Assembly (NCBI GenBank): GCA_963796215.1
Contig: CAWCKU010000020.1
Coordinates: 29,030 to 93,029 of the forward strand
Direction of reading: 5' to 3'
Source of the DNA: an uncultured delta proteobacterium
GTDB lineage: Bacteria > Desulfobacterota > Desulfobaccia > Desulfobaccales > 0-14-0-80-60-11
Length of the DNA: 64,000 bases
Positions 26,022 to 46,739 of the stretch are shown here, one piece after another. Below the pieces are notes generated by a model. It saw only the letters and a list, made by a program, of their open reading frames with translations. It ran no database searches and had not been told where the DNA came from. A program made the position numbers and the translations under genes. Within the stretch, counting starts at the first letter, position 1, and each line of letters begins with the position of its first letter.

Positions 26022-26077
26022 AATTAACCAACAATTAGTAAAATCCAAACCTAATCTTCACAAACTCACGATAGAGT
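26022..26077 (+). promoter_or_regulatory. Pho-box-like array plus -10
   Basis: AATTAAC-4-AATTAGT-4-TCCAAAC-4-TCTTCAC-10bp-TAGAGT. Confidence 0.55.
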
Positions 26078-26199
26078 GCAGGCATCATTCCCTTTCCCCA
26101 TACAGAAGCGGCTGGGCTGATGGCAATCCCGAAATTCCAGGGCTTGGTATCGCCCAGCCCTTCCCCTTTAAGATAAGGCTCCATGGAGAATGATGATAC

Positions 26200-26451
26200 T
26201 TGGATAAAACCTCAGCCTTAACCAGCCAGATTGAAGAGATGGAGAGCAAATCTATGGACCCCAAGGTCTGCCCCAGATGTGATGGCGCCGAAACACTTGC
26301 CGAACAATGTCCGTTATGCCATGGACAACCCAAGAGGTATCCGGGCGGCTGCCCGCTTTGCGAGGGTGATGGTTGGGTGGAAACCGAGTGTCCGCAATGT
26401 GGGGGAACCGGGCAATTGGATGAACGGGATTTTTTTAACGAGGGCATATAA
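26200..26451 (+). CDS. Stand-alone DnaJ-type cysteine-rich zinc-finger protein
   Basis: CPRCDG, CPLCHG, CPLCEGDG and CPQCGGTG in 83 aa. Confidence 0.7.
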   Translation: MDKTSALTSQIEEMESKSMDPKVCPRCDGAETLAEQCPLCHGQPKRYPGGCPLCEGDGWVETECPQCGGTGQLDERDFFNEGI

Positions 26452-26493
26452 AACGGGCGATGCCGCCCAATCTCGGCATATAATGATGAGGCC

Positions 26494-27001
26494 ATGCCTG
26501 AGATCGCTGGAATCAAGGAAAAAAACGGCGAACACCCGTACGGCGATGCCGGTCAGCTGATCCTGCTGGGTTTGTTTTTGATCGTTTGGCTGGGGGATTC
26601 GTTTTTTCTGCGCCTATCGACGTTCCTGACAGCTTACCTATCGTGGTATATCCGGCTAATCTTTTTGGTTGCTTGCCTGGCCACCGCCGCTTTCTTGTTC
26701 AAATCAGGCCATGTGGTAGTCAGTCATTCGCGACGCCCCAGCGGCCTGATGTCCACCGGGGCCTTCAAGTATGTAAGGCACCCTCTGTATCTCGGGTGCC
26801 TCCTGGTATACCTGGGCTTGGCGTTTAGCCTGTTTTCCCTCTTTTCTCTGGCTTCTCTGGGTTGCTATCTGCACCTTCTATAATTACCTTGCCAGCTATG
26901 AAGAGAAAATACTTGCGGCCAAGTTTGGCGAGAGTTACAGAATTTATCAAGAGCAAACCGGAAAGTGGCTGCCAAGGATGCTTTTCATTCATAAAGATTA
27001 G
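26494..27001 (+). CDS. ICMT/PEMT-family membrane methyltransferase (one frameshift near 26870)
   Basis: LMSTGAFKYVRHPLYLG, then EEKILAAKFGESYRIYQEQTGKWLP in the next frame. Confidence 0.8.
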
Positions 27002-27041
27002 GTCTTTTTTGAATAAAGGATAGGGATCGAGGACCAGGCCC

Positions 27042-27608
27042 ATGTCTGCTGATTCTACCCCAGCCCTGAAGCGCCAAAGCCGTCTGACCGATGATTTCTT
27101 CTATTTCTTCCTGCGCTTGCGCAAAGACCGCATCCGTAAGGTGGTGGCCGACATCAATGTCCGCTACCCTGAGGAAGCGGTAGAGCAGCGGGCCCGCCGC
27201 CTAATCGAGGCCCAGACCCAGCTTTCCCTCTTGGGAGGGGTGATCCTCGATTTACCCGCCATGATCCCCGTAATCGGGCAGGCCATAAAAATTCTGGGGT
27301 TTGTGGGGGGGACTTCCGCTCTGGTGCGCATGCACCTATACCTCATCCTGGAGATCGCCCTGCTGTACGGCAAGGATATCGACGATGAGGAACGGGTTCC
27401 GGAGATGGCAGCAGTGGTGGCCGGCACCGGCGTGGCGGTTGGCGCTCCCTTCGTGGCCGACGCTCTGGGGTTCCATCCTCTGGTGGCTATGGCCACCGGG
27501 GCGGTGGCGGCCTTGACCACGTCCCGCTTGATCGGCGAAAGCGCCATCCGCTACTACAGCCAACCGCAGGAAGTTGCCCCGAACCCAACCGTTGAACCAG
27601 CCACCTGA
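27042..27608 (+). CDS. EcsC/DUF697-like protein
   Basis: Small-residue-rich hydrophobic segments, PAMIPVIG and LILEIALLYG. Confidence 0.55.
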   Translation: MSADSTPALKRQSRLTDDFFYFFLRLRKDRIRKVVADINVRYPEEAVEQRARRLIEAQTQLSLLGGVILDLPAMIPVIGQAIKILGFVGGTSALVRMHLYLILEIALLYGKDIDDEERVPEMAAVVAGTGVAVGAPFVADALGFHPLVAMATGAVAALTTSRLIGESAIRYYSQPQEVAPNPTVEPAT

Positions 27609-27664
27609 AGGCTACTGGCCGTCACCCTCTTAAAACCTTATCCGCTGACTCCAGCGATATCAAA

Positions 27665-27709
27665 TTCTAACCCTATCCTCATAAATCTGTAACAATCCCT
27701 GATTAAATA
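27665..27709 (+). promoter_or_regulatory. Pho box upstream of pstB
   Basis: TTCTAAC-4-TCCTCAT-AAAT-CTGTAAC; the last 18 bp match the CTGTCATAWAWCTGTMAY consensus at 15 of 18 positions. Confidence 0.65.
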
Positions 27710-27834
27710 TTACGGGGGACGTTCCCCTGAATGGACCTTGCCGAAGGCGCGGCAAAGCCATCTTCTGAGAGAATCCCAGGCATTTGGGGTTCCAATCGTG
27801 AATCACTCTTCCTTCCCACGGAGGAACAAGAAAT

Positions 27835-28677
27835 ATGGATTCCATTACGGCAGACTCAACCCTTTTTCCCCTGGCCGGCGCCGCTGATGAAGAAGCTACG
27901 GGAGCCTATTCTGGTTCGAAAAGGTCCATTAAGATTATCGCCCGCCGGGTGAACTTCTTTTATGGAGGCCAGCAGGCCTTAGCCGATAATAACATGGAGG
28001 TTGCCCGTAACCGGGTGACGGCCATCATTGGGCCTTCCGGCTGCGGTAAATCCACGCATATCCGCATCTACAACCGCATCTACGAGCTTTATGGAGAGCA
28101 GCAAGCCACCGGCCAGATATTGCTGGACGGTAAAGATATCCTGGACCCCTCCTATGACCTCATGGAACTGCGCCGCAAGGTGGGGATGATCTTCCAGAAG
28201 CCCACCCCCTTTCCCATGAGCATCCTTGACAACGTGGCCTATGGGCTCAAGATGCACTATCGCCTGAGGCGGGGCGAAATCATGGACCGGGTGGAAGAGG
28301 CGTTAACCCAGGCGGCCATCTGGGATGAAGTGAAGGACATTTTGCACCACTCGGGGACGGCCCTGTCCGGCGGCCAGCAGCAGCGGCTGTGTATCGCCCG
28401 GGTCTTGGCCATGGAACCGGAGGTGTTATTGATGGACGAGCCCACCTCGGCCATTGATCCCATTGCCACGGCCAAGATCGAGGAATTAATCCATACTCTG
28501 AAGTTGACCTATACCATCGTCATCGTGACTCATAATATGCAGCAGGCGGCGCGGATTTCCGATTATACCGCCTTCTTCTGGCAGGGGAAGATCTTTGAGT
28601 CCGGCCCGACCCAGAAAATCTTCACCAACCCCTCGCATAAAAAAACCCAAGACTATATTACCGGCCGTTTTGGTTGA
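27835..28677 (+). CDS. pstB: Phosphate ABC transporter ATP-binding protein (no pstS/pstC/pstA in window)
   Basis: [46 protein letters not shown] and DYITGRFG. Confidence 0.93.
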
Positions 28678-29910: not shown

Positions 29911-30276
29911 TCAGCCACTCAGGCAATTGGCCACCAAATGACGCAGTCCGGCCCAACCAAAGGGCTTGAAGTGATAACCCTCGTTTTTGACCAGGTAGGC
30001 CCCGGTGGGGGAGCTAATTTCAGGCCCGACCCGTAAAATAATGACGGCAATCTCACGATTCAGATCCCTGACTGCCTTGAGAAAGGGGCGGGTGTCCGTC
30101 CAATCGTTGCTTAAACAGGTGATCACCAGGGGGAAATTACCGGTGAGCAGGGCCTGGAAAGCCTCCTGCGTCTGGTCGGTGGTGGTGACTTGATAGCCCG
30201 TTTCCGTCAAGAACCGGCTAAGGGCTGGGAAGATTTGCGAACCATCACTAATCAACAAAATGTTGCCGCGGTGCAT
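29911..30276 (-). CDS. Pseudo-receiver protein, paralogue of 19627-19992
   Basis: NILLISDGSQIF...FPLVITC...GWAGLRHLVANCLS; RBS AGGAGG. Confidence 0.72.
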   Translation of the reverse strand: MHRGNILLISDGSQIFPALSRFLTETGYQVTTTDQTQEAFQALLTGNFPLVITCLSNDWTDTRPFLKAVRDLNREIAVIILRVGPEISSPTGAYLVKNEGYHFKPFGWAGLRHLVANCLSG

Positions 30277-30301: not shown

Positions 30302-32712
30302 TCATTGAGCTTGATTAAAGGAAACAGCTTTCCCCTCATACATCTTCCAGGCGGCCTGGAAGGCGGTTTCAAAGGAACGCTGCTTGACGTGATGCCGGGC
30401 CGCCTGGCCCATCTTCCTTAATCTTTCCGGATCGGCCAGCAACCGGCTGATGGCGTTGTAGAGGCCCGCTTCATCGTCGCCGGGAACTATGATCCCGGTT
30501 TCACCGTCGCGGACATTCTCTTGCGGCCCCCCGGAATCGGTGACAATGACCGGGAGACCCGAAGCCTGGGCTTCTAAAACGACATTGCCGAAGGTATCCG
30601 TGGTGCTGGGAAAGACAAACAGATCGCATGAGGCGTAGACCTCGGCGAGCTCTTCTCCAGCCAGGTAGCCGGTGAAGACGCAGGAAGTGGCCGCCAGTTC
30701 CCGCCGCATCTCTTCCAAGTAGGGGCCGTCTCCCACGACTATCAATTTTAGGTCCGGATGGCTGGGTGCCAGGGTCTTGAAGACCGTGGCCAGGAGCTGC
30801 AAATTTTTCTCCTTGGAGACCCGGCCCACATAAAGAAGTTTTGGACCCTCCTTGACCTGATACCGCTTCTCCAGGACGCCGTTGCGCTTGGCCGGATGGA
30901 ACCGCGCCACATCCACTCCCCGGGGATAAAGGCGGATTTTCCGGGGTCGATCCCTCTCTGGTGCAATTCTTCAGCGGTGCTGCCGGAGGGTGCAAAGACC
31001 AGATCCATCTGATTGTAAAACCAGATGAGGTACTTCCACATCAGCTCTTCGATGCCGGCATCACCCGTTAAATATTGGGCATATTGAGGCAAAGCGGTGT
31101 GATAAGTGCTCCAGATCGGCAGGCCCAAAATCCGGGCGACCCCTAAAGCCGCCAGCCCCATGGGGCCCGGGGTGGCGGTCTTGATGTGGGTAAAATTCTG
31201 CTCATAACAATAATTGAGGATCTCCAAAAAAGGCGGATGGAATAGTTTCTGTTCGGGGTATTCCGGTAAATGAAAGACCCCGATGGGAGCGAAGTTGCGA
31301 ATCCCTTGCTGCTGCGGCCGGGCCTCGGTATCGCAGGTGATGATGGTATACTGCTTATCGGTTTTGATGGCGGCCTCGACCTGGCGCCTGAGGGTGAGTC
31401 CCACGCCGTTGACCTCATAGAAGGTGTCGGTAAAATGAGCCAGGTTGATCTGATCTATCTCATCGGCGCCTACCGATTCCTGCTTGAAGGAATGACGAAT
31501 TATTTGCTGCCCCAAGTTTCTGTCCTTGGAGAAAGAAGAGAACGAGGCAAAATAGGGAGTCAACCCTAAATAGATTATTCCGGATGAGGTGATGGAATTA
31601 ACTAAATCGATGAAATTGACTTCAGTCAGGGCTTTGCGAAAATGTCCGTGAAATTGTTTAATGATATTAATAGAGATATCATTAAGTATTCCGAACCACT
31701 GCGCCCCTGGCTTATTAGGCGATCCATTTTGTGGTATTTTAGTGGTCTCATTTAATATTAAAGATAAAAGCGTGTCATCTTGATTATTCTTCTGAGAATT
31801 CCTGAAATATAGTTTAATCTTATTACGATAATATTGATATCTGGTTAATTGGTTTTTGGGCTCTAAGTTGTTCTGCAGGAATCTCTCGAAAAAGCTGATA
31901 AAAAGACTGGAGTCGGCGTACCTGCCCAGGTCGTATTTATTTTTATAGAACTGATAGGCGATACTATACAGATTGTGGGCCAGGGTTAAGGGGGTGGAGG
32001 CCTGTCCTGTGGGCCTGGCCTTGCCGGAATCGAGGCCATGAAAAAAATGTCTTAGGTCCAGGGCTCCTGCCACCTGGGTAAACATGCGGGCGATATTCAG
32101 AGAACTATGGTCATCGGAACCGCCGGTAAAATTCTTCTGCCAGGGGTTATGAAAACCTGGCACGATCCCATGTTTATCCGCCAGGGCGCTGAAATCTGCC
32201 GGACTGAGTTGAGATAACCCCAGCTTTAACAATTCGTTCAAATGGGTGTCCCGGGCTCCATTCAGTTCAAAATTCTTGAAGAGCAGCAGGAATTTTTCGA
32301 AATGAACCGGGGCCAAGCGATCGTTGACCGCCCAAAAGGGATGGGCCAAACTATGGGGAATGCCTCTCTCCTGCAGAAAGTTGACTAAATCAAAGATATT
32401 TTCCCGGATTTTCTGGATGTCTCGATGCTGTTCTTCATTGATATCATAGACCAACACGTGCGCTTTGCAGCGGTCCTCCGGGAAATAGGTGGTCACTTCC
32501 TCGCTGATAAAGGTGTCCGGGAGGCCGGCGATTTCCAAACAGCCATCGATGACATTGTGGTCCGTAATGGTTACCAGGGACATACCTTTCTTCTTGGCCA
32601 GGCGGTAAAGAGTTTGGGGTTCGGTATAACATTCTTGACAGCCCAACTTTTGCAGGACCCATTGGGAGGGTCGGGTGGAGAATTTGGAATGAACGTGCAG
32701 GTCGATCTTCAT
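30302..32712 (-). CDS. PHP metallophosphoesterase fused to a GT4 glycosyltransferase (one frameshift near 30925)
   Basis: N-terminal IDLHVHS, ITDHN, LAHP and GGSDDH; C-terminal FTDTFYEVNGV, ATPGPMG, YHTALPQY, YVGRVSKEKN and DTFGNVVLEAQASG. Confidence 0.85.
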
Positions 32713-32735
32713 AATCCCTCCTTTCTTTAGTAAAA

Positions 32736-33422
32736 TTAGGTGATTAAGACGGTTTCCCCAGCCCGGACCTTGTCTCCCGGCTGGACCATGATAAACATCT
32801 CGGGCCGGAATGGCACCACCAGGTCAACTTGCGAGCCGATGCGGATCATGCCAAAGACCTCGCCCTTGGTGACCCGCTCTCCCGGGTTAAAATAACTATC
32901 AATCCCCTTGACGCTCTTCCCGGCGATTTGGACCACGTAATAAGAGATCGTCTCTCCTCTAAATTGGCCCGCCATCTTTGTCACGGTCCGCTCATTGGTG
33001 ACAATGTGCCGGGAATTCTCATAAAAAGGCAGGCGCTTCAGCACGGTGCGCCAATGCATCGGGGCCATGCAATAGTTCTTCGCTTGGGCGGGATGATGCC
33101 GGATAAAATCGATCTTGCCGGCCAGCGGGGCACGGTTGTAGTGGACGCTGAAGGGGCTCATGAAGATGCCGATCAGGATCTTGGGAACAGCCAAATCTTC
33201 CCGGACAATGTCGGTGAGAGTCGCCCGCAACCCCTGCTTGATCGTGATCACCTCTTGCCGGGGCTCCACCTTACTGACGTACACCACGGTGCCATCGGCG
33301 GGGCTGACGAGGCTCTCTCCCGGGGGCGGGACCCGGAGGGGATTGCGGAAGAACCAGATGTACCGCCAGTAAAGATATCCTGCCAGTAGGGTCAACAGTA
33401 GGAATATGGCCAAATAGGTCAA
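32736..33422 (-). CDS. psd: Phosphatidylserine decarboxylase-family proenzyme
   Basis: FFRNPLR, SPADG, IFMSPFSVHYNRAP, GSQV autocleavage site and GDKVRAGET. Confidence 0.85.
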   Translation of the reverse strand: MTYLAIFLLLTLLAGYLYWRYIWFFRNPLRVPPPGESLVSPADGTVVYVSKVEPRQEVITIKQGLRATLTDIVREDLAVPKILIGIFMSPFSVHYNRAPLAGKIDFIRHHPAQAKNYCMAPMHWRTVLKRLPFYENSRHIVTNERTVTKMAGQFRGETISYYVVQIAGKSVKGIDSYFNPGERVTKGEVFGMIRIGSQVDLVVPFRPEMFIMVQPGDKVRAGETVLIT

Positions 33423-34120
33423 TGGAGTTTTTTCCAGGCAGAGGGGTCCAAGACCCGCACCAGGGCGACACCCGAAGAAAACGGGAAATCGATCACCTCA
33501 AAATTTTCCTCTTGCCCTTTGATGAACTTCAGCCATTTCTTCACCCCCGCATGCTTGATCAATTCCCGCAGGTAAATGTTGGTATCGTGCAGGAAGATAT
33601 AAGTATTCTTATGTGATTGCTTTAGGACTTCCAAAAAATCGTATTTGACATCTTTATAGGCATGGCTGCCGTCGATGAAAGCCAGATCGATGCCAGGCAG
33701 GTTGAGATTCTGATAGGCTGGGAAAAACTCATCGTTGCGCACTTTGTAATGGGTGACGAGGTTTTCCACCCCAAAGTGTTCAAAATGGGCCTTAACGGAA
33801 GACTCATCCGTCCAGATGCCCCGCCCGCCTACGGTTATGAGGGGCCCATTCTTTAATAAAGAATAAGCGGGATCGACAAAACTCAACTTGCCACGGGTGT
33901 TATCCTTTAACCCCAAGGCCAAGCAGACCACACTGAAACCATATCCTGAGCCGATTACCAAGACATGCTTAGGTCTTAAAGCCCTTACCAACCCGTAATA
34001 AATAAATCCGAAACCTAAATTCAACTCCTTAACCTTTTCATTGTGACCGAATGGTTTGGCAACTTGCAGGATATCTTTGAGAAGATCATGACTTAAGCTA
34101 AAATCTCCCATTAGCCGCAA
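33419..34120 (-). CDS. Class I SAM-dependent methyltransferase (Methyltransf_24-like)
   Basis: LVIGSGYGFS, DLAFIDGSHAY and IFLHD; ATGA overlap with psd. Confidence 0.8.
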   Translation of the reverse strand: MRLMGDFSLSHDLLKDILQVAKPFGHNEKVKELNLGFGFIYYGLVRALRPKHVLVIGSGYGFSVVCLALGLKDNTRGKLSFVDPAYSLLKNGPLITVGGRGIWTDESSVKAHFEHFGVENLVTHYKVRNDEFFPAYQNLNLPGIDLAFIDGSHAYKDVKYDFLEVLKQSHKNTYIFLHDTNIYLRELIKHAGVKKWLKFIKGQEENFEVIDFPFSSGVALVRVLDPSAWKKLH

Positions 34121-34402
34121 CCCCCTTAAATTGGTTTTTGAATGACATAATTAACTAATGCTGGTTATAATTCTCTGCAACTTGAGCAATTACTACCGCT
34201 TTTATATTAAAAACGCATTTCATTTATGTTAAATATTGATTATTGCTTACTTCTAGTAAAAAAAACCGACCTGAGGTTATTGCCTGGCCGGAAAGACTGC
34301 GTATAATTAAGCCTCGGTGAGGGGGGGATAAAGACGGAGGGGAACTGTTTGAATCAAAAGCAAGGAGCGATTTGGGGGGTCGGCGAGCAACCGCGAAGGG
34401 AG

Positions 34403-34753
34403 TTAACCTGAATTCACCTCCACACCATTCGGCAGGCCATTTAGGATAACCTCGCGGACTATGGCGCCGACTTCCTTCCGCAAGGCCCCCAAGCAGGTTT
34501 GCCCTTGCGGGGTGAGCTCGTAATATTTGCGGGCCCGCCCTTTAAAAATCCTGATCCGGGAATGCAGGAGATTGGCCTTTTCGAAGGTGTGCAGCAGGGG
34601 GTAGAGGCTTCCCGGGCTGATCTCATAGCCCTGGTTATGCAAGTATTTGCTCAACTTGCCCCCATAGATCGGCCCCAGACCGGCCTGATGCAGGACAACG
34701 AGTTTGACCATGCCCTGCCAAAATGTATGGGAGATCTGCTTTCCTAAATCCAT
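34403..34753 (-). CDS. PadR-family transcriptional regulator
   Basis: PIYGG...ISPGSLYPLLH...RKYYELTPQG. Confidence 0.88.
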   Translation of the reverse strand: MDLGKQISHTFWQGMVKLVVLHQAGLGPIYGGKLSKYLHNQGYEISPGSLYPLLHTFEKANLLHSRIRIFKGRARKYYELTPQGQTCLGALRKEVGAIVREVILNGLPNGVEVNSG

Positions 34754-34816
34754 ATATCGGATACTGATATATATCTGTTAGGAAATGATTAAGGTCTCAT
34801 TGATTTTTGGTTAAAT
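34754..34816 (-). promoter_or_regulatory. Probable PadR operator (imperfect palindrome ATATCGGATACTGATAT) plus a four-unit 11-bp array
   Basis: Minus strand ATTTAAC-4-AATCAAT-4-CCTTAAT-4-TCCTAAC at 34816-34777. Confidence 0.55.
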
Positions 34817-34859: not shown

Positions 34860-35159
34860 ATGGCCATGGCCATTTTGGATAACGGTTTTAAGGGCGCGGT
34901 GCCCAGCATTCTGGTGGTGTTAGGGGTGGCCCTGGCGGCCCCCATCGTTCTCCCCGCCGTGGCGGCGGTGTCCCGGCCGTTGGCCAAGACCTTAATCAAG
35001 GGTTATCTGGTCTTGTCCGACATGGCCAAGGAGTTTGCCGCAGAAACCGGCGAGCAGATCAGCGACCTGGTGGCCGAAGTCAAGGCCGAACGCGATGCCG
35101 CCGTGGCAGCTGAGGTGGCGGCTGAGCCGGAAACCAAGCCGGCCAAAGTAAAAAGTTAA
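34860..35159 (+). CDS. DUF5132-like small membrane protein
   Basis: Hydrophobic N-terminus, then RPLAKTLIKG...AETGEQISDLVAEVKAE. Confidence 0.75.
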   Translation: MAMAILDNGFKGAVPSILVVLGVALAAPIVLPAVAAVSRPLAKTLIKGYLVLSDMAKEFAAETGEQISDLVAEVKAERDAAVAAEVAAEPETKPAKVKS

Positions 35160-35180
35160 CGAAAGCTCTGGGAGCCGCGG

Positions 35181-36076: not shown

Positions 36077-36466
36077 TTAAATCAAGGCGCCGACCAGCCG
36101 GCTCAGAGCGACTTCCATCAGGGTGGCCGCCACGGTGGCAGTCACTTTTTCCACCACTCCGTGCGGGGCTGCGGCTGGATTATTTTCGCCGCTACCCCTT
36201 TGACTGGGTTGAGACAGATACCCCACCTCTTTTAAGGAAGAGATGATGTCCTCCTGCTCAATGAGGCGGGAATTGTATAGGATCAGAACGTTCCCGGTGG
36301 TGGGATTGGCGGAAACATACTCGATCCCGGCAGCCTGCCGCAGGTGGCGCTCCACTTCCTGGGCCTTCCTGGCCGACCCCTTAACCTTGGGGACCTTGAT
36401 CCGGAGCCTACCTTCCAGGGCGTGAACATATAAAGAATCCACATTCATGATAGTCAATGCCTCCAA
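36077..36466 (-). CDS. HMA2/CoBaHMA-domain protein
   Basis: YVHALEGRLRIKV...ANPTTGNVLILYN. Confidence 0.8.
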   Translation of the reverse strand: MEALTIMNVDSLYVHALEGRLRIKVPKVKGSARKAQEVERHLRQAAGIEYVSANPTTGNVLILYNSRLIEQEDIISSLKEVGYLSQPSQRGSGENNPAAAPHGVVEKVTATVAATLMEVALSRLVGALI

Positions 36467-36751: not shown

Positions 36752-38053
36752 ATGAAAAAAATTTATATTTTGGATACCAACGTTTTATTGCACGATCCGG
36801 AATCCTTATTTTCTTTCGAAGACAACTCCATAGTTTTGCCGCTTTCAGTGATTGAGGAATTAGACCGCACCAAGAGGAGGGGGGATGAGGTGGGCAGAAA
36901 TGCCCGGGACGCATCCAGAAAGTTGGATGAATTGAGGCTGACGGGTCGTCTGGCGGAAGGGGTCGAACTCCCCAGCGGCGGCTCCGTCCGTATTGAATTA
37001 AACGGCATCAAAAATTACGACCTGTTGCACGGGGTCGATTTGAACACCGTTGATAATAGAATCCTGGCCCTGGCCTATCATCTCATGAACAGTGAAAATA
37101 GCCCGGTGGTGCTGGTTACCAAGGATTTAAACCTGCGCATCAAGGCAGATGTTCTGGGGCTCTCGACCGAGGATTTCTACAGCGATAAGGTCGATTATTG
37201 TAAGTTATATACCGGCGTCCACGAATTATATCTTTCTCAGCCGGAGATAGACCGGTTCTATCAAGATGGCTGCCTTGATTTTGGTCAGGATAATCTTCAT
37301 CCCCACCAGTTCTGCATCCTTAAGTCCCATGAAAACCCCTCCATCTCGGCCTTGGCAAGGTTTAGTGATAATAAACTCAACAGACTCTCATATGACGGCA
37401 AGATGGTTTACGGCATCAAAGGACTGAATAAGGAGCAGAAATTTGCCCTGGAACTGTTGCTGGATGATCGCATCAAGATCGTCACTTTAGTCGGTAAGGC
37501 CGGGACCGGCAAGACCATCCTGGCGTTGGCTGCCGGTCTGGAAAGAGTTTTTGAGGATAGCGGGAAATACAACCGGTTGCTGATAACCAGGCCGATTGTT
37601 CCGTTAGGCAACGACCTGGGTTACCTTCCCGGAGATAAAGAAGATAAAATCAGGCCCTGGATGCAGCCGATTTATGACAATCTGGAGTTTCTTTGTAATG
37701 AGCATATCCGGCCCAATGGCTCCACGGAATACTTGCTCACCAGCGGCAAGATCGAACTGGAGGCTTTGACTTATATCCGGGGCCGCAGCATCCCTCGCCA
37801 GTTCATTATCTGCGACGAAAGCCAGAATCTCAGCCCCCATGTGATCAAGACCATCCTGACCCGGGTTGGCCGGGGCAGCAAGATCGTCTTCACCGGGGAC
37901 CCGGAACAGATCGACCACCCCTATTTGGACGCCTCTTCCAATGGCTTGAGTTATTTGGTGGAAAGAATCAAAGAAGAAGGAATTTCCGGGCACATCACCC
38001 TGATCAAGGGGGAAAGGTCCGGCGTCGCTGAATTGGGGGCCAGATTGTTATAA
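36752..38053 (+). CDS. PhoH2 (PIN domain plus PhoH ATPase)
   Basis: ILDTNVLLHDP, DNRIL, VTKDLNLRIKA, GKAGTGKT, LGYLPG, YIRGRS, DESQN and GDPEQID. Confidence 0.92.
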   Translation: MKKIYILDTNVLLHDPESLFSFEDNSIVLPLSVIEELDRTKRRGDEVGRNARDASRKLDELRLTGRLAEGVELPSGGSVRIELNGIKNYDLLHGVDLNTVDNRILALAYHLMNSENSPVVLVTKDLNLRIKADVLGLSTEDFYSDKVDYCKLYTGVHELYLSQPEIDRFYQDGCLDFGQDNLHPHQFCILKSHENPSISALARFSDNKLNRLSYDGKMVYGIKGLNKEQKFALELLLDDRIKIVTLVGKAGTGKTILALAAGLERVFEDSGKYNRLLITRPIVPLGNDLGYLPGDKEDKIRPWMQPIYDNLEFLCNEHIRPNGSTEYLLTSGKIELEALTYIRGRSIPRQFIICDESQNLSPHVIKTILTRVGRGSKIVFTGDPEQIDHPYLDASSNGLSYLVERIKEEGISGHITLIKGERSGVAELGARLL

Positions 38054-38182
38054 GTAGTTCGTAGTTCCTTTAGCTACCTCTGTAGGTGATTTTTCCCACC
38101 GGGGTCTTACCGCGATTTCCTCCCCGCAGTCCCTCTATCGTTTGGCGATATATGTCGCCGTATCATTATTGTATGCAGTGAA

Positions 38183-38227
38183 TTTAGACATATCTTTAAC
38201 ACGTTCCTAACATTTTGCGTTTATGCT
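38183..38227 (+). promoter_or_regulatory. Pho-box-like array plus -10
   Basis: TTTAGAC-4-CTTTAAC-4-TCCTAAC-10bp-TATGCT. Confidence 0.62.
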
Positions 38228-38258: not shown

Positions 38259-38546
38259 TTGGAGGACATCGAAATCATCGCCTCGCGGCCGGGCCAGCTC
38301 AGTCTGGCCATAGCCAGAGTGAAAGATAATGACGCCCTGGCGCGGGAGGTGGAGTATCGTTTTGGGGCCATCAGTGGGATTCACCAGGTGGAGGCGGACG
38401 CGGTCCAGGGACTGGTGTTGATCGACTATGATAAACAGCGCTTGTCCTCCCTGAGCTTTCTGCTCCAACTGAAGGAGGCCTTTTCCGCCCTATTTCCTGA
38501 AGTCAGCGCCACCCAACTGGCTGCCTCGATAAGTCGCAGTCTTTGA
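38259..38546 (+). CDS. Degenerate HMA2/CoBaHMA-domain protein
   Basis: ARVKDNDALARE...GIHQVEADAVQGLVLIDYD...LFPEV closely parallels the 35181 N-terminus. Confidence 0.7.
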   Translation: MEDIEIIASRPGQLSLAIARVKDNDALAREVEYRFGAISGIHQVEADAVQGLVLIDYDKQRLSSLSFLLQLKEAFSALFPEVSATQLAASISRSL

Positions 38547-38630
38547 AAGTCTTTCTTAACCCCGCCTTGGAGGCCCGTTCGATCGCTGGAAGTATATCTT
38601 TAAATTACTATCTTATAGGTAACCAAATTT

Positions 38631-39320
38631 ATGGAGGTCCTTATGTCCCCCCCGGAAACTAAAGAGAGCAAGGGTATTGGGGAAATGCTGGGCGAAGCCG
38701 GTACCACCGTGAAGGATGGCATCGTCGGCAGCCTCAAGGGTTTGAGCGAGATCGAAGCCCAGATCGTCAGTCTGGCCCGCAACACCGTGACCGACGTCCT
38801 GAAGGGCACCGGCAGTGTGGCCAACGAAACCATCAATGTCAGCAAGGACGTCTTCAAAGGGGCCCTAAAGGCCACTGAAGAAGTCGGCACCAGCCTGCTG
38901 GTGACCACCAAGGACGTGGCTAAGGGCATTCTCCTGGGCGTTGCCGACGTGGGCGGCGATGTAGAGAAGGCCGCCGGCCAACTGGCCAAAGGCGCGGTCA
39001 AAGGCGCCGCGGAAGTCGGTGGAGATGTGGCCCAGGTGGCCAAAAGCGCGGTTACCGGCGTAATCGAAGCTACCCGTGAGATCGGCGGCAATGTGGGCGA
39101 GGCCACGAAATCGGCGGTGGGCGGCGCCATCGAAGCCGCCGGAACCCTGGGGCAGTCGGCGGTCAAGGCCGTCAGCGACATCCTGGTGGGCGCGGTTTCG
39201 GGCCTCAAGGAAGTGGCTTGCGCGGCGTGGCCGAAGTCAAAGGCAGAACCCGAGGCCCCTCCGGAGACCAAGCCGGCCCCCGAAGCCGAGAAAAAGCCGG
39301 TTAAGGGCAAAGGCGAGTAG
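38631..39320 (+). CDS. Gly/Ala/Val-rich protein of about eight tandem 22-aa repeats
   Basis: VAKGILLGVADVGGDVEKAAGQ / LAKGAVKGAAEVGGDVAQVAKS / AVTGVIEATREIGGNVGEATKS and similar units. Confidence 0.8.
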   Translation: MEVLMSPPETKESKGIGEMLGEAGTTVKDGIVGSLKGLSEIEAQIVSLARNTVTDVLKGTGSVANETINVSKDVFKGALKATEEVGTSLLVTTKDVAKGILLGVADVGGDVEKAAGQLAKGAVKGAAEVGGDVAQVAKSAVTGVIEATREIGGNVGEATKSAVGGAIEAAGTLGQSAVKAVSDILVGAVSGLKEVACAAWPKSKAEPEAPPETKPAPEAEKKPVKGKGE

Positions 39321-39523
39321 CGCCACGGCCGCCGGCGGCTCAGTTGGGTAGGGCGAGCGTCCCTGTTCACCGCGGCTGTCTCCATATTGCAATTTCAGAC
39401 TAAATCGGCGGCCCTGGGCCGCCCTGTTGGTAATTTTGGTGCGTAGGGCGCACCCTACGTTTCGTCTTTGTCAGTCCTTACTAGCTACTGACTACTGACT
39501 ACTTGACTACTGGCAACTTTCAG

Positions 39524-42500
39524 ATGGTCGAAGCGATACATACCGCCGTGGCGGGAAGGGCGAGGTTTAAGGTCGAGGGCCTGTACCGCTCAAAGTCCCT
39601 GGAGAAGCAGCTTGAGTGGCGTCTGGCGCGGCTGCAGGATATTTCCCTGGCCTCGGCCAATGCCCTCACCGGCAATGTCCTGGTCTGCTACAATTCAGGC
39701 AACACCCCGCAAACCATCGCCGCCTTAATCGAAGGGATCGTCTCCGAGTGCCAGAGCCAACCCCAACCTGCCCCTTCAGTTCCTGTCCGAGTAAGATCCA
39801 AGGCCGGCGCCGAGCCGGAAGATCAGGCCGGCGTCTTAGACCGGTTCAGGGGCCTCTTTACCTATCCGGCGGAGCAGCCGGCGGAGCCCTGGCATCGGCT
39901 GGAAGCCGAGGCGGCGTTAGCCAAGTGGCAGACTTCCCGGGAAACGGGTTTATCCCTCCAGGCTGTCCAGAGAAATCGCCAGAAATACGGCTCTAATATT
40001 CTGCCGGAAGCCGAGCCCCGATCCGGTTGGGAAATTTTTTTGAGTCAATTCAACTCCCTCCCGGTGGCCCTCCTGGGCGCGGCCGCGGGTCTTTCCATCG
40101 TCACCGGGGGGATGGTCGACGCCGTGCTGATCATGGGCGTGGTGGTCGCCAATGCCTTCATCGGCTATAAAACCGAAAGCGAATCCGAAAAGACCATTCG
40201 CTCCCTGCAAACCCTGGTGCGGCCCGCAGCCCTGGTCATCCGGGAAGGCCGGTTTGGCGAAATCCCTTCCGAAGAAGTGACCCCGGGAGACCTCCTGGTA
40301 CTCCGTCCCGGCAGCTATGTGGCTGCTGATGCGCGCTTGCTAGAGGCCAGCCACCTGTCCGTGGATGAGTCGGCTCTGACCGGGGAAAGCCTGCCGGTAA
40401 CTAAAAACCCCCAGGTCTTGGAACAAGAAAACATCCCCCTGGGAGATCGGCTCAACCTGGTCTTTATGGGCACTCTGGTTACCGGCGGCGAAGGTCTGGC
40501 GGTGGTGGTGGCCACCGGAAGTTATACCGAAATCGGCCTGATCCAGTCTCTGATCGGCGAAGCTTCCAGCCCGGAGACCCCCCTGGAAAGACAGCTTGGC
40601 CAGTTGGGCGACCAACTGGTCCTGCTCTGCCTTGGCATCTCCGGAGTGGTGTTTGTCATGGGGTTCGCCTGGGGCTATGGTTGGTTGGAGATGCTGCGCA
40701 CCTCTATCTGCCTGGCTGCGGCCGCGGTGCCGGAAGGCCTGCCCGCCGCGGCCACCACCACCCTGGCCCTGGGCATCCGGGACATGCGCAAGCACCATGT
40801 CTTGATCCGCCATCTGAATGCGGTGGAGACCTTAGGGGCGGTGCAGACCGTTTGCCTGGATAAGACCGGGACCATCACCCGCAATCAGATGTCCGTGCTC
40901 CAGATCTTTACCGGCATGAAGACCATCCGCGTGGCGGAGAATGGGCAATTCAGTGGGCCGGAAGGGCTGATTGAACCTTTTACCTGTGAAGAACTGGAAC
41001 AACTCCTCCAGATTTCCGTGCTGTGCAACGAAATTGAAATTTATCAGGAAGGCGGGGATTATGTCCTGCGGGGGACCCCCACGGAAGGCGCCCTGGTGCA
41101 CCTGGCGATCCTGGTGGGCCTCGACGTCACTGACCTGAGGGCGCGCTATCCCTTGCTGAGGGTGAATCACCGCTCGGAAAACCGCCTGTTTATGGGCACG
41201 CTGCATGATGATCCACCCGCCGGGAAACTTTCTGCCCTCAAAGGCAGCCCGCTGGAAGTTCTGGCCATGTGCTCCTGGCATCTCCAGGATGGCCGGAAAT
41301 TGCCGCTAACCGAGGAAGACCTGCAGCGCATCGAGGCTGAGAACGAGGAGATGGCGGGGCGGGCCCTGCGGGTCCTGGGGCTGGCCTATGCCCTGGGTCC
41401 TGATGAGTCCGTCTTTGAGGAGCTTGACGGCCTGGTCTGGCTGGGCATGGTGGGCATGGCCGATCCCATCCGGGAGGGGGTGGGCGAAGCGATCCGGGCC
41501 TTCCACCGGGCGGGGATCGAGACGGTGATGATCACCGGCGACCAGAGTCCCACCGCCCAGGCCATCGGCCAGGAACTGGACCTGAGCCAGGGGGACCCCT
41601 TGGAAATCCTGGACGCCACCCATCTGGCGGAGATCGAGCCGGATGTCTTGCGGGCCCTGGTCAAGAGGGCCCAGGTCTTTGCCCGCGTCAGCCCATCCCA
41701 TAAGCTGCAGATCGTCCAGGCCTTGCAGGGGGCCGGCAAGGTGGTGGCCATGACCGGCGACGGCATCAACGACGGCCCGGCCCTCAAGGCAGCGGACGTG
41801 GGCATTGCCATGGGCCGGACCGGCACCGATATCGCCCGGGAAGTGGCGGACGTGGTCCTGGAGAAAGACAACCTCGATACCCTGATCATCGCCATCCGGG
41901 ATGGCCGCACCATTTATCTTAATATCAGAAAGTCGGTGCATTTTTTCCTGGCCACCAATCTGAGTGAAATCATGTTGACCTTTACGGCCATTGCCGTGGG
42001 ACTGGGGTCGCCGCTGACCGCGGCCCAGCTCCTATGGATTAACCTGATCTCCGACATCTTCCCCGGATTGGCCCTGGCCATGGAGGCGCCGGAGCCCGAT
42101 ATCCTGGAGCGCCCGCCCCGCGATCCCCAAAGACCGATTTTCACCGGCTGCGGACTTCAAGAGGATGGCCTTTGAGTCCGGGGCGATCACCGCCGGGGCT
42201 CTTGGGGCTTATGGCTATGGCATGATGCGCTACGGGGGAGCCGCGGCCAGTACCATGGCCTTTCATAGCCTCACTACCGGGCAGCTTCTCCACGCCATCA
42301 GTTGCCGCTCGGAAACCCACACCATTTTTAGTCCCGGAGAAATTGCCTCCCAACCGGTACCTGACTATGGCCCTGGGGGGCTCATTGGTCATGCAATTCT
42401 TGACCATGGTGGTTCCCGGACTGAGAAGTCTGTTGGGTCTGGCTCCGGTGGGCCTCCTGGATGGCCTGGTAATTTCCGGCACCGCCTTGCTCCCCTTGGT

Positions 42501-42591
42501 GGTGAATGAAGCTACCAAAAAACCACCGGTTAATGGGGTAAATGAGGTCCAGGAATCCAGCCTCGGAGTGAGCCAAAAAAGGACTCATTGA
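39524..42591 (+). CDS. P2A-type (Ca2+/Mn2+-like) P-type ATPase with N-terminal HMA2/CoBaHMA domain (frameshifts near 42145 and 42340)
   Basis: IHTAVAGRARFKV N-domain; TGES, VPEGL, DKTGT, GDGIND, M5 TNLSE and M6 WINLISD. Confidence 0.9.
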
Positions 42592-43790
42592 TGAAAAATG
42601 ACTTTATCTTCATGTCGGAGTCGGTAACCGAGGGGCATCCGGATAAGATGTGCGATCAGATCAGCGATGCCATCGTGGATCATTTCCTGGAACAAGACCC
42701 CCAGGCCCGAGTGCGCGCCGAATGTGCGGTGGCCACATCCATCTTGTTCATTGCCGCCCGGTTTGTCTCCGAAATTAAAGTCGATATCCCCAATGTGGCC
42801 CGCAAGGTCATCGGCCGGCTCGGTTACCTGCAACCGGACTTCGACGCCCGCACCTGCAGTATCTTAACCAGCCTGCAGGAGTATCCGTCGGATACGGACC
42901 TCTTTTTCAACGAGAACCAACTCTCCGAAGCAGAGATAGATAAGCTGCATGTGAGGCAACATGCCACTGCTTTCGGTTTTGCCTGCCGCCAGACCGCGGT
43001 CCTGATGCCCCTGCCCATCTGGTTGGCACATAAACTGGTCCGGCAGATGGACAGTGCCCGAGGTCAGAAACTGATCCCCTACCTGTCTCCGGACGGCAAG
43101 GCCCTGGTGGGCGTGGAATATAGGGATCGCCGGCCTTACCGCATTTATAGCCTTACAGTCGTCGCCAGCGGCTCCAGGGCGGCCGGCCATGAGGTCACCG
43201 ACCAGCGCTTGCATAACGACATTCGCGAAGCCGTGATCAAACCAGCCTTTGCCGATGAGGACATCAAACCGGACGACCGCACCCTGATCTTTATCAATCC
43301 ACTGGAACATCTCATGGTGGGCGGCCCGGGGGTGCATTCCGGGCTCACCGGCCGTAAGACCGACGTGGACACCTACGGGGAATATGCCCGCCATAGCGGC
43401 AACGCCTTGAGCGGCAAGGACCACTTGCGGATTGATCGAGTGGGGGCTTATGCGGCGCGCTATGCCGCTAAAAATGTGGTGGCAGCCGGCCTGGCGGAGG
43501 AATGCGAGGTCCATTTGGCCTATTCCATCGGCTTTTCCCGGCCAGTCAGTATTCAGGTGGAAACCTTCGGCACCGGCAAGTTCTCCGATGACGAGCTTTC
43601 CACCTTGCTGGAGCGTCACTTCGATTTTCGCCTGGCCGCCATTCTGCGGGATTTTAACCTGAGGCACCTTCCCGCTCTCAATAAAGGCCGCTTTTACCGC
43701 AAGCTGGCGGTCTATGGCCAGGTGGGGCGTCTCGACCTTAACTTGCCCTGGGAAGTTACCGACAAGGCCGAGATTCTCAAGGAACGTTAG
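42588..43790 (+). CDS. Divergent methionine adenosyltransferase (MetK) paralogue
   Basis: SESVTEGHPDK, GLTGRK and SGKD present; GAGDQG signature replaced by HVRQHA. Confidence 0.88.
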   Translation: MMKNDFIFMSESVTEGHPDKMCDQISDAIVDHFLEQDPQARVRAECAVATSILFIAARFVSEIKVDIPNVARKVIGRLGYLQPDFDARTCSILTSLQEYPSDTDLFFNENQLSEAEIDKLHVRQHATAFGFACRQTAVLMPLPIWLAHKLVRQMDSARGQKLIPYLSPDGKALVGVEYRDRRPYRIYSLTVVASGSRAAGHEVTDQRLHNDIREAVIKPAFADEDIKPDDRTLIFINPLEHLMVGGPGVHSGLTGRKTDVDTYGEYARHSGNALSGKDHLRIDRVGAYAARYAAKNVVAAGLAEECEVHLAYSIGFSRPVSIQVETFGTGKFSDDELSTLLERHFDFRLAAILRDFNLRHLPALNKGRFYRKLAVYGQVGRLDLNLPWEVTDKAEILKER

Positions 43791-44456
43791 ATGCACATCT
43801 CCCATTTATTGATCATTTTATTGCTGGCTATATCCTGCAACCTGGACAACGTTGGGGTGGGTATCGCTTACGGGGCTCGAGGGATCGGCATCCCCCTGGG
43901 GTCAAATCTCTTGATCGCCCTGGTCACGGCCGCAGGCACCGGGCTCTGTATCATTTTCGGGCAGCGAATCTTCCAAGTCTTGCCTGCCGAGGTTGGCGTT
44001 CTTTTGGGAGCCGTGTTGTTGGTCGGCATGGGGGTCTGGGTCATCCGCCAGGATATCGGCGAACGGAGCCGCCAGGACCAAGAGACCCCAGCCACAGGCC
44101 CCGCTGATGAGTTGGCCCAAAAGTCGTGGCTACGGCGGCTCATCCTGATCCTGCAACATCCGGTCCTCGCTGACCGAGACTCCTCGGGTCACATTGATTT
44201 AAAGGAAAGTCTCCTGCTGAGTATGGCCCTCATGCTAAACAATGTCCCCAACGGCGTTGGAGCCGGGCTGCTGGGGCTGTCGACCTGGCTCACCACCTTG
44301 TTGGTAGGGCTCCTGAGCGTGCTCACCTTCTGGGTGGGAATCGGCCTGGGCCGGAGTCTCGGGGTGCGCTGGCTGGGCCGGTACGCCGGCACGGTTTCCG
44401 GCCTGTTGCTCGTGGTTATCGGTTTGGTCGAAATGGTCCTGGCAATACAGTTTTAG
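43791..44456 (+). CDS. MntP/YtaF-family membrane protein (putative Mn2+ exporter)
   Basis: [31 protein letters not shown] and ALMLNN. Confidence 0.8.
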
Positions 44457-44476
44457 CCCAGCGAAGAGAGAGACAC

Positions 44477-44902
44477 ATGGAAAAAGCCAGAGTTCTATTC
44501 CTTTGCACCCATAATACTGCCCGGAGCCAAATGGCCGAGGCCTTCCTGAGATCGTTCGCCGGCGACCGCTTTGAGGTCTTCAGCGCCGGCACCGAACCGA
44601 GGGAGATTGATCCCTATGTCAAACGGGTGATGTCCGAAGTCGGCCTTGATCTTAGTAATCAGCGGTCCAAGAGCGTGGTGGAATTCCTGGGCAAAATGAC
44701 CGTTGCCTATCTAATCATCGTTTGCGAAAAGGTGGAGGAAAACTGCCCGATAACCTTCCCCGGCTTTAGGTATCGGCTGTACTGGCCCATTGAAGACCCG
44801 GTGGCTTTTGCCGGCTCGGATGAACAAAAGCTGGAAAAGTTCAGAGCAGTGCGGGATTGGATAGCGGACCGGCTAAAATTGTGGTTGCGTGAATTGGACT
44901 GA
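44477..44902 (+). CDS. arsC: Thioredoxin-type arsenate reductase / LMW phosphatase
   Basis: [22 protein letters not shown] and WPIEDP. Confidence 0.85.
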
Positions 44903-44963
44903 GATAAATTTCTCCAGGGATCGAGTTTAGGAGTACAGTTTTAATATTAGAAAATGAGGCTAT

Positions 44964-45650
44964 ATGGCTCACGAAAACATTTTAGTGGTGGAAGATGACG
45001 AGGACATCCTGGAACTACTCAGGTACAACCTGGCCAAGGAGGGCTACCGGGTAACCGCGATTACCTCGGGGGAAGACGGATTGCCACTCGCCCGCTCGAC
45101 CACCCCGGACCTGATCTTGCTGGATTTGATGCTCCCCGGGATAGACGGGCTGGAAGTCTGCCGGCGGCTCAAAATGGACCCCAAAACCCGGCAGGTGCCG
45201 ATCATCATGCTCACCGCCAAAGGGGAAGAAACGGACATTGTCACCGGTCTGGAGTTGGGGGCGGAGGACTACATCACCAAACCCTTCAGCCCCCGGGTAT
45301 TGCTGGCCCGTATTCGCACGGCGCTCCGACGCCACGGCGCGGCTACGCCAGGAGAGGATGCCCTGCTAAAAATCCATGACCTGACCATCAACCCCGGCCG
45401 CCACGAGATTCTGGTTCAGGGGAAATCTGTGGACTTGACGGCGGTGGAGTTCCGCCTCCTGCACCTGTTGGCGCGGAGGCCGGGCTGGGTGCTGACCCGG
45501 GCTCAGATTGTCGAAGGCGTGCATGGCGAAGACTATCCCGTCACCGACCGGGCTGTAGACGTAAAAATTGTCTCCCTCCGCAAGAAGCTGGGTCTCGCGG
45601 CCGAGTACATCGAAACGGTTCGAGGGGTGGGTTATCGCTTCAAAGACTGA
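44964..45650 (+). CDS. PhoB-like OmpR-family response regulator (no cognate kinase in window)
   Basis: LVVEDD, LLDLMLPG, LTAKGEE, DYITKPF, DRAVDV and IETVRGVGYRF. Confidence 0.88.
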   Translation: MAHENILVVEDDEDILELLRYNLAKEGYRVTAITSGEDGLPLARSTTPDLILLDLMLPGIDGLEVCRRLKMDPKTRQVPIIMLTAKGEETDIVTGLELGAEDYITKPFSPRVLLARIRTALRRHGAATPGEDALLKIHDLTINPGRHEILVQGKSVDLTAVEFRLLHLLARRPGWVLTRAQIVEGVHGEDYPVTDRAVDVKIVSLRKKLGLAAEYIETVRGVGYRFKD

Positions 45651-46275
45651 CTGATTGAGACTTTTTGGCTGGGATTTTCGGCCATCTCTGCCGCAGCCAG
45701 ATTCCCCGGATAAGGAAATAAGCCAAGATAGAGGTGGCGATTAACCCGGCCGCCATTTGGCCATGGCCGCCAATCCGCTCCACAAGGAGGCCCGCTTCCC
45801 GGCCCCAAAGATATCCCAAGAAAATATAGCCCAATGACCAGGCCAGGGCCCCCGCATAAGCAGACCGGATAAAGTCTGCCAGCGGGAATCTGGTGATCCC
45901 GGCGGCTATGGCTACCCAGTGCCGGACCCCCGGAATGAAGTATCCCAGGAATAACAGCCAACCGCCGCAACGGCGGAGCCGCTCTTCCAGCCTCTTAAAC
46001 TTGTCGGGCTTGATAGAGCAATAAACCCCGGCCTCCCTGATCAACTTGGCGCCTGCCGCTCTTCCCAGCCAATAATCCAGCGTTATTCCCAGGATGGCGC
46101 CCGCCACGACCACCGCTAACGCCGGTATTAGCCGCAAGTCTCCCCGCAGCACCAGATAGCCGATAAAAGTCAATAATAGTTCATCGGGGACGGGAATGCC
46201 GAAGGTCCCCGGCGCCAGCAAGAGAAAAATCGCCAGATATCCGTGCTGGGAAACAAAATAAGTTATGAATTCCAT
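45640..46275 (-). CDS. DedA-family membrane protein
   Basis: GIPVPDELLL, YWLGR and FIPGVRH. Confidence 0.88.
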   Translation of the reverse strand: MEFITYFVSQHGYLAIFLLLAPGTFGIPVPDELLLTFIGYLVLRGDLRLIPALAVVVAGAILGITLDYWLGRAAGAKLIREAGVYCSIKPDKFKRLEERLRRCGGWLLFLGYFIPGVRHWVAIAAGITRFPLADFIRSAYAGALAWSLGYIFLGYLWGREAGLLVERIGGHGQMAAGLIATSILAYFLIRGIWLRQRWPKIPAKKSQSVSL

Positions 46276-46341
46276 AATTGTATTTAGATTAATCTACGCT
46301 TCCTTCCAATGAAAATTCAGCACCACAATTATGATAGGCTC

Positions 46342-46407
46342 ATCATGAAAATTAGTTGTTAAACAATAACTAAGATTTGTTAGATTTTATTTAATATTTT
46401 GTTATTT
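46342..46407 (-). promoter_or_regulatory. Pho-box-like array plus -10 upstream of dedA
   Basis: Minus strand AAATAAC / TATTAAA / ATCTAAC / TCTTAGT / GTTTAAC at 10-11 bp period, then 10 bp and CATGAT. Confidence 0.55.
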
Positions 46408-46739
46408 TATTCTTGGGTAGTTTTTTCTCCAGGCAACTAGTCCTTATATTCTCGCGCAGCCATGTTTGCCCTCCGCCGGGTTCCTCCCGGAGCCCCCTCA
46501 AGACCTTGGTCCCAAGCCGAGCGAGGTTGGACTAACCTTCACAAAACCAAATCAAAACTCAAATATCACCGAACGATAATCATTCACTAGTGGATCGCGC
46601 CTATCGTGGCCTCGGGTAAAGAGACAAATCATGCACCTCCGCCAGGAGAGGAGGTGAAGGCTCTGGGGGACGCATTTTTAGGGATTTTTGCGGGATTTCC
46701 GCCATCATACTTTTACCGAACAACGGAGGCTAGAGCATC

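Follow-up and report, generated by a model that had tools for sequence, protein, structure and literature searches.

Eight arrays of short repeats with an 11-bp period, each in front of a different gene, lie in a 64,000-nucleotide stretch of DNA (hereafter the window) from an uncultured delta proteobacterium of the order Desulfobaccales; the window is on contig C20 of a genome that is 84.6% complete. The initial annotation read these arrays as PhoB-type sites and proposed one self-contained phosphate-starvation regulon, possibly driven by the PhoB-like protein encoded at 44964. Are the arrays genuine Pho boxes, which protein reads them, and can the regulon stand alone? Our results indicate that the eight arrays are probably PhoB sites on a genomic island integrated at a tRNA gene, and that the island carries a predicted Pho regulon driven by its own PhoB. 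A self-contained regulon is not supported.

Eight arrays with an 11-bp period

All eight arrays were found in the sequence where they had been annotated, on the strand of the downstream gene. Each site was held out in turn and scored with a three-unit matrix built from the other seven. Because a scan with the intergenic background of the genome returned mostly AT-rich DNA, a 66% AT background was used thereafter. The held-out arrays scored 9.5 to 14.4 bits and each was found in register; the opposite strand gave at most 3.0 bits. The annotated period of 11 bp was the best one for seven of the eight, with the 26022 array tying with period 10. Pooled trinucleotide repeats, taken from the picks of the initial annotation itself, also peaked at period 11 (24 seen vs 10.4 expected, 0 of 500 shuffles). 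Enrichment over matched controls was borne out as well: only 0-1.4% of AT-matched intergenic windows scored as high as the held-out sites, which thus exceeded at least 98.6% of them, and shuffle p values ranged from <0.001 to 0.052, the marginal ones being those of 26022 (p 0.039) and 36544 (p 0.052). Short repeats with a 7-bp period (GACTACT-type, e.g. at window position 39464) produce false matches in such scans.

On the forward strand, four units at 26022-26077 (9.5 bits) precede a small Cys-rich open reading frame (ORF, 26200-26451), three units at 27665-27709 (12.6 bits) precede a lone pstB with a weak -10 element (TAAATA), three units at 38183-38227 (14.4 bits) overlap a sigma70-type promoter, and four Pho-box-like units at 46530-46569 (10.7 bits) precede a PHP gene with TCATTC at the -10 position. 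On the reverse strand, four units each stand before a methyltransferase operon (34206-34245, 10.7 bits, poor -10) and an HMA_2 gene (36505-36544, 9.6 bits, AAAAAT). The padR promoter (34761-34816, reverse strand, 13.4 bits) has four units at 34816-34777, a palindrome at 34765-34776 in the spacer and the -10 element CAGTAT at 34766-34761. The array before dedA (46363-46407, reverse strand, 12.2 bits) has three in-register units at 46407-46379. The individual weak sites (46530 and 26022) are less secure than the array set.

In E. coli, the Pho box is positioned 10 bp before the -10 element. A good -10-like hexamer was found exactly 10 bp past the last unit at four of the eight sites: TAGAGT (26022), TATGCT (38183), CAGTAT (34816) and, before dedA, TATTGT at 46368-46363, the in-register hexamer in place of the CATGAT annotated earlier. 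The pstB array is retained in relative G003, there with TAATCT at 10 bp, and the HMA_2-gene array of other genera is followed by TAnnnT at the same distance. Predicted leaders of about 115 nt follow the first two arrays (26084-26200 and 27715-27835) and have no Rfam match; the one at 26084-26200 holds a GC-rich inverted repeat.

The same repeat precedes pstS in relatives

Loci were taken around the best PhoB, PhoR, ATPase and DUF5132 matches of related genomes, and 300 bp upstream of each gene was scored at a threshold of 10 bits; the relatives are kin, and locus counts are not independent trials. The matrix trained on the window found an array upstream of pstS in 11 of 15 relatives, against one on the opposite strand and none at periods 10 and 12. 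A de novo search of the 15 pstS promoters alone returned period 11 and the core CTAACAA, with a score of 19.3 vs at most 13.6 at periods 9, 10, 12 and 13. This search was confined to intergenic DNA, as an initial run had converged on the coding part of phoR. Since the same repeat precedes pstS in the phoB-phoR-pst loci of relatives, the YTAAC repeat with its 11-bp period and a -10 element 10 bp downstream is, judging from sequence, very likely the Pho box of the Desulfobaccales.

Loci fetched later agreed with this consensus. Two of the 20 were unscorable (in one the flank was too short, in the other phoR was incomplete); 9 of the 18 scorable phoR 3' flanks reached at least 10 bits, the three controls giving 0, 0 and 0, and an array was present in 7 of the 9 loci in which pstS follows phoR. 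A full promoter model was counted from 19 pstS promoters, with anchors chosen by the window matrix. In its genome-wide ranking, 38183 came out at rank 1, 26022 at rank 4, dedA at rank 10 and pstB at rank 11; of its 14 sites of at least 12 bits, 4 fell in the island, where 0.1 was expected.

Most of the island targets carry their arrays in relatives too. Arrays of at least 10 bits were found upstream of padR (19/20), the HMA_2 gene (21/23), the methyltransferase gene (13/19), dedA (11/14), the small Cys-rich gene (4/4), a receiver gene (9/11) and the DUF5132 gene (5/21). At the same threshold none was found before phoR (0/16), a second type of pstS (0/5), the ATPase gene (0/26), metK (0/25) or the HMA_2 gene at 38259, the target of the 38183 site (0/16), and none of 11 relatives had one on the own strand of the PIN-PhoH gene. 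Period-10 controls gave 0-2 matches per gene, except for dedA (7/14). The arrays persist even in genera whose flanking DNA can no longer be aligned. In relatives, the distance from the last unit to a YAnnnT hexamer was exactly 10 bp for 45 of 98 arrays, the next peak being 14 at 21 bp. Beyond the order, arrays of at least 12 bits were present at period 11 in 13 of 25 DUF5132/ATPase loci drawn from other families of the phylum, vs 5, 2, 3 and 2 at other periods, and six of the loci adjoin pst, phoU or phoBR genes. In a sister family (L058, L059, L061, L062 and L063), the cluster has no padR and the array points straight at the DUF5132 gene in all five loci, in one case with a perfect TATAAT 10 bp downstream. 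Distant homologues of the PHP gene have an array in 2 of 6 cases.

Outside the island, the motif in this genome was at chance level (13 of 1958 upstream regions, vs 16 at period 10, 16 at period 12 and 12 on the opposite strand), and the other pstS and the two phoU genes of the host had no box (3.5-5.8 bits). A single receiver-like gene on the island, at 29911-30276, has no array here and its own array in the 9 of 11 relatives counted above; a similar gene outside the island (19627-19992) goes with a 16-bit array (intergenic background) at 20086.

An island-type PhoB has likely replaced the chromosomal copy in relatives

The candidate reader of these arrays, the PhoB at 44964-45650 (forward strand), is the last gene of the pump operon and has no adjoining kinase. 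It consists of a receiver and a winged-helix domain with the phospho-acceptor D54, and its best family is TIGR02154 (245.5 bits). The closest homologues (71-75% identical) reside in phoB-phoR-pstSCAB loci, and the protein shares the receiver helix and D54 with these phoR-linked PhoBs. Thirteen island copies (this genome, 11 congeners and G034) form one clade (support 100/99), which is separate from the phoR-linked copies of G002, G003, G010 and G034 and nests among the phoR-linked PhoBs of the order. A single clade for all PhoB copies of the genus was rejected (approximately unbiased test, p-AU 0.002), and thus the island copy did not arise by recent duplication of the host's phoB. Horizontal transfer between this genus and G034 was considered and is not shown, as an island-PhoB clade confined to the genus, without G034, is not rejected (p-AU 0.40).

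The separate phoR locus was inspected in six congeners (L029-L034), and in each of them the phoB before phoR is broken or gone. What is left varies from just a frameshifted DNA-binding part or a receiver piece to the first few codons or nothing at all. In the five of them where pstS is in view, its box persists (14-17 bits). G008 (one contig, 97% complete) and G012 (97%) encode exactly one OmpR-type DNA-binding domain, that of the island PhoB; both keep phoR, preceded by no more than traces of phoB, and have pstS boxes of 16.9 and 14.1 bits. Nothing else ties the motif to the island PhoB as strongly. The suggestion that 44964 reads the arrays hence gains comparative support, its clade being the sole possible OmpR-type reader in these two genomes, and an island-type PhoB has likely replaced the chromosomal copy in several relatives.

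The arrays lie on an island inserted in tRNA-Arg

All eight arrays are inside 25771-51973, a region bounded by a 34-bp direct repeat. A repeat search placed the left copy at 25771-25804 (forward strand), where it is identical to the 5' part of tRNA-Arg(CCT), and the right copy within the intact tRNA-Arg(CCT) at 51940-52019 (forward strand). In the sister genome G011 (93% complete), the match to the window is 96.9% as far as 25804, where the sequence runs directly into an intact tRNA-Arg, i.e., an empty site; the island PhoB and ATPase have no match there. Both ends carry a direct repeat of part of a tRNA and a relative has the empty site, as in a tRNA-integrated island; the region is therefore a 26.2-kb insertion in tRNA-Arg. 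Integration may have been recent, because the LptD of the island-free G011 is 98% identical to that of the host. The tRNA lies beside lptD in 7 of 8 relatives checked. No intact integrase was found on the island; a remnant of 99 codons, the C-terminus of a tyrosine integrase, lies at its right end (51586-51885, forward strand; PF00589, E-value 6e-6, below the cut-off). The same cluster is located beside tRNA-Pro(TGG) in eight congeners (L035, L037, L039, L040, L041, L043, L046 and L047) and near tRNA-Lys or tRNA-Met in other loci (L010, L051 and L068). In an Rfam scan of the window, the tRNA was the sole match.

The sensor is not on the island

The proposal that the regulon is self-contained did not hold. 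No histidine kinase was found among the island ORFs, relatives keep phoR elsewhere (12 of 14 congeners have it), and none was found in this assembly. The boxes in this genome are confined to the island, and the sensor is not on it. Downstream of secG and tRNA-Leu(GAG), this genome (G000:C19:137500-146000) has kdp genes where G002 and G003 have phoB-phoR-pstSCAB. The phoR gene may lie in the unassembled ~15% of the genome. Two other OmpR-type regulators were found here, one BaeR-like and one KdpE-like.

A probable PadR tier on the pump operon

A palindrome missed by the initial annotation, CGATATAT[AG]TCG, occurs at 38146-38157 and 34765-34776. At the first place its sequence is CGATATATGTCG and it lies 11 bp before a -35 element; across loci, it is found 11-12 bp before a conserved TTG..-16/18 bp-TATA.T promoter of the pump operon. 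At the second place it sits in the spacer of the padR promoter. The PadR-family regulator itself (Rv3488-like) is encoded at 34403-34753 on the reverse strand. With at most one mismatch, the palindrome occurs at two places in this genome. It precedes the ATPase gene in 18 of 24 loci with padR vs 3 of 35 without it, where all three sequences end before padR could appear; seven loci retrieved a second time were not counted. The palindrome is likely the PadR operator, as its co-occurrence with padR suggests.

A palindrome-anchored alignment delineated the sigma70-type promoter at 38169-38196 (forward strand; TTGTAT-16 bp-TATCTT), with a spacing conserved in relatives; a simple promoter scan did not list it, the match being below its threshold. 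Since the 38183 array overlaps this palindrome-linked promoter and is recognisable only in G000 (this genome), G002 and G003, the pump operon, which ends in phoB, likely has two promoters here. G010 lacks the pump module and has the palindrome-linked promoter directly before arsC-phoB (L019, 8800-8950), which suggests that phoB is transcribed from this promoter. A stem-loop at 39441-39460 may attenuate the operon. The proposal of a single phosphate-starvation regulon gains support from comparison in that the motif is the same as that before pstS next to phoB-phoR in relatives, and needs amending for a likely second tier (PadR) and the lineage-restricted 38183 site.

Proposed circuit and alternatives

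In the circuit that we propose, a chromosomal PhoR would phosphorylate the island PhoB under phosphate starvation, and PhoB~P would bind the arrays in place of a -35 element and switch on pstB, the lipid-remodelling operon, padR, an HMA_2 gene, dedA and the PHP gene. PadR would act on the palindrome, limiting its own promoter and setting the pump operon (HMA_2 protein, repeat protein, Ca2+-type ATPase, MetK look-alike, ytaF, arsC and phoB). As the operon ends in phoB, it would close a feedback loop on phoB. In this genome, where the sensor seems to be missing, the circuit would stay silent or depend on cross-talk, unless the unassembled part contains phoR.

Several observations weigh against this circuit. 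The -10 hexamer is poor at four sites (27665, 36544, 34245 and 46530), so the promoter geometry of the initial annotation stands for the other four. A matrix derived from pstS alone put 5 of 8 island sites above 7 bits and had 119 genome matches at 10 bits, and the pstS promoter model recovered four of the eight sites and missed the other four. The 44964 protein falls below the TIGR02154 cut-off (245.5 vs 296.2 bits; the phoR-linked homologues are also short of it, at 253-255), and its clade has Lys201 in the recognition helix where phoR-linked PhoBs have Gln or His. Neither PhoR (best kinase ~30% identical) nor a PstS of the PhoB-controlled type was found in the 84.6% complete genome, and neither was found in G011. 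At 10.5 bits, a repeat upstream of kdpA (a possible KdpE site) means that look-alike boxes can belong to another OmpR-type regulator. The role and sign assigned to PadR are drawn from co-occurrence and position only, and the kinship of the relatives makes their counts overstate independence.

One alternative, implied by the title of the initial annotation, is that the island is truly self-sufficient, its PhoB variant working without PhoR through small phosphodonors, cross-talk or constitutive binding. The single island clade with its common Lys201, the eight intact arrays kept in a genome where no PhoR was found, and the lack of motif excess outside the island would all fit. However, the receiver residues of the island PhoB match those of phoR-linked PhoBs, intact arrays need no current function if the insertion is recent, and the 12 of 14 congeners with phoR keep it also where the adjoining phoB has been deleted, which argues that the island PhoB uses PhoR; we regard self-sufficiency as improbable. 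The kdpA repeat and the BaeR-like and KdpE-like regulators also raise the option that another OmpR-family regulator, or another signal such as metal or envelope stress, reads the arrays, the Pho likeness being family-level. Many targets are metal or membrane genes, and the PhoB box of Desulfovibrio has a different consensus (PMC3333781). Against this, G008 and G012 have no other OmpR-type DNA-binding domain and in two families the motif is found at the pstS that adjoins phoB-phoR, which makes a different reader less probable still. Least credible is that the arrays were picked by eye from chance products of AT-rich intergenic DNA: AT-rich stretches elsewhere do outscore them with the intergenic background, and two sites are marginal against shuffles, but the held-out, strand and period controls, the conservation where flanks cannot be aligned and the fresh pstS promoters refute this explanation for the array set.

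The repeated loss of phoR-linked phoB with an island copy present is, on this reading, a clear example of how a regulator borne by a mobile element can end up as the sole phosphate regulator of its host. The box mechanism itself is textbook. The analysis also gives a testable Pho-box consensus for the Desulfobaccales and places a phylum-wide module (CoBaHMA, DUF5132, a Ca2+-type pump and a MetK look-alike misannotated as S-adenosylmethionine synthetase) under predicted phosphate control, which tells experimenters when to seek a phenotype. A more speculative extension, for which we hold rather low expectations, is that a mobile island has captured the host phosphate response: its PhoB would displace the chromosomal phoB and so make the island indispensable, and a PhoB-to-PadR cascade would run an undescribed machine made of a Ca2+ pump scaffolded by CoBaHMA/DUF5132 proteins and a MetK-fold (poly)phosphatase, building or mobilising an intracellular calcium-phosphate store during phosphate starvation.

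Comparison with known systems

The Pho box of E. coli PhoB consists of 11-nt units with CTGTCAT (review PMC4415409). The island arrays resemble it in having 11-bp units of seven conserved and four variable bases, an OmpR/PhoB-family regulator and pst targets, and differ in the YTAAC core, in the three to four units per array and in a regulator that sits on a mobile island, away from phoR and at the end of a pump operon. The placement 10 bp before the -10 element is also alike, as measured for the island and its relatives. The SphR box of cyanobacteria (PMC1906773), made up of three or more 8-bp repeats CTTAACCT separated by a 3-bp linker, has a nearly identical core, the same period of 11 and a like number of units; it belongs to another phylum, and among the island targets are a pump module that is uncharacterised and a probable PadR tier. 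Within the same phylum, PhoB of Desulfovibrio vulgaris (DVU1083; PMC3333781) regulates one pstSCA operon, and the species has another pst operon without a box, like the second pst operon here. The consensus reported for it, (c/t)GT(n)AC, sets that motif apart from YTAAC.

Tycheposons, which are tRNA-integrated cargo elements (bioRxiv 10.1101/2020.12.28.424599), likewise integrate at tRNA genes, are flanked by partial tRNA and carry nutrient-related cargo; the island, in contrast, has only an integrase remnant, and its regulator replaced the chromosomal one in congeners. The pump module is reminiscent of ferrosome fez clusters (bioRxiv 10.1101/2020.01.10.902569), ccyA neighbourhoods and PacL/CtpC platforms (PMC9374683), where a cation pump or exchanger is combined with small membrane proteins with HMA-like or CoBaHMA domains. 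Unlike these, the island pump is of the P2A type (closest solved structure, Listeria LMCA1) and not P1B, the MetK look-alike always follows it, and the module is under Pho-type boxes; no calcyanin match was seen and none was sought.

Cargo genes of the island

The lone pstB (27835-28677, forward strand; TIGR00972 above cut-off) is without pstSCA and 74% identical to pstB of a relative's phoR-pst operon. The reverse-strand operon at 30302-34120 encodes a methyltransferase, a phosphatidylserine-decarboxylase-like protein and a PHP-GT4 fusion (in two frames here), in an order conserved in relatives. By analogy, it plausibly serves membrane-lipid remodelling towards phosphorus-saving lipids; in Desulfovibrio, a glycosyltransferase makes glycolipids under phosphate limitation (PMC5193443). 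The HMA_2 domain is the CoBaHMA domain. It occurs in a membrane protein encoded with a DUF5132 protein (34860-35753, forward strand), in the protein at 36077-36448 (reverse strand) and in a protein encoded with a Gly/Ala-rich helical-repeat protein (38259-39320, forward strand), for which an atlas search returned hypothetical clusters only. Among 401 genomes of the phylum, 39 had a DUF5132 match. In the literature searched, it appeared solely in a paper on calcyanin neighbourhoods, which places DUF5132 and CoBaHMA genes beside ccyA in Microcystis (bioRxiv 10.1101/2024.07.07.602159). Between these genes lies a PIN-PhoH (PhoH2-like) gene (36752-38053, forward strand) with no own-strand array.

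The ATPase (39524-42591, forward strand) is of the P2A (Ca2+/Mn2+) type with an N-terminal HMA_2 domain. Its best families are P2A Ca2+ pumps and not the P1B-6 type of FezB, and it keeps PEGL (48/50), N..E in M5, N..S/T-D in M6 and Gln in M8, like one-site Ca2+/Mn2+ pumps. Three single-base insertions relative to relatives put the C-terminus out of frame; this is likely an assembly error, because host genes also show frameshifts.

The MetK look-alike that follows (42591-43790, forward strand) lacks the methionine-binding residues. His14, Asp16, Glu42, Arg244, Lys245 and Lys265, which we take to be the phosphate-site residues, are invariant in 55 sequences. By E. coli numbering, Glu55 is replaced by Arg (53/55), Gln98 is lost, Asp238 is His (55/55) and Lys269 is Arg (54/55), all four positions assigned to methionine binding in MetK (PMC3853416; also PMC1282579). 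The host encodes a normal MetK elsewhere. A plasmid search with the look-alike gave 190 records; among the 25 matches listed, all were below 47% identity and the annotated ones were named metK. In the literature searched, which leaves most subscription journals outside, no report was found of a Pho regulon or Pho box of the Desulfobaccales or of this MetK paralogue, and the CoBaHMA/DUF5132 proteins, the Ca2+-type ATPase and the MetK look-alike are uncharacterised.

Further along the operon, 43791-44902 (forward strand) encodes a YtaF/MntP-like membrane protein and an ArsC/low-molecular-weight phosphatase. The DedA/VTT protein is encoded at 45640-46275 (reverse strand). The PHP-type metallohydrolase and a fused major facilitator superfamily/spermidine-synthase-like protein occupy 46740-51410 (forward strand); the PHP gene was not found in 14 congeners. 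The 27042 protein gave a weak EcsC/DUF697 lead. Outside the island, at 53300-54662, a fasciclin gene is enclosed by a perfect 27-bp inverted repeat, and a 129-bp direct repeat extends over small membrane ORFs.

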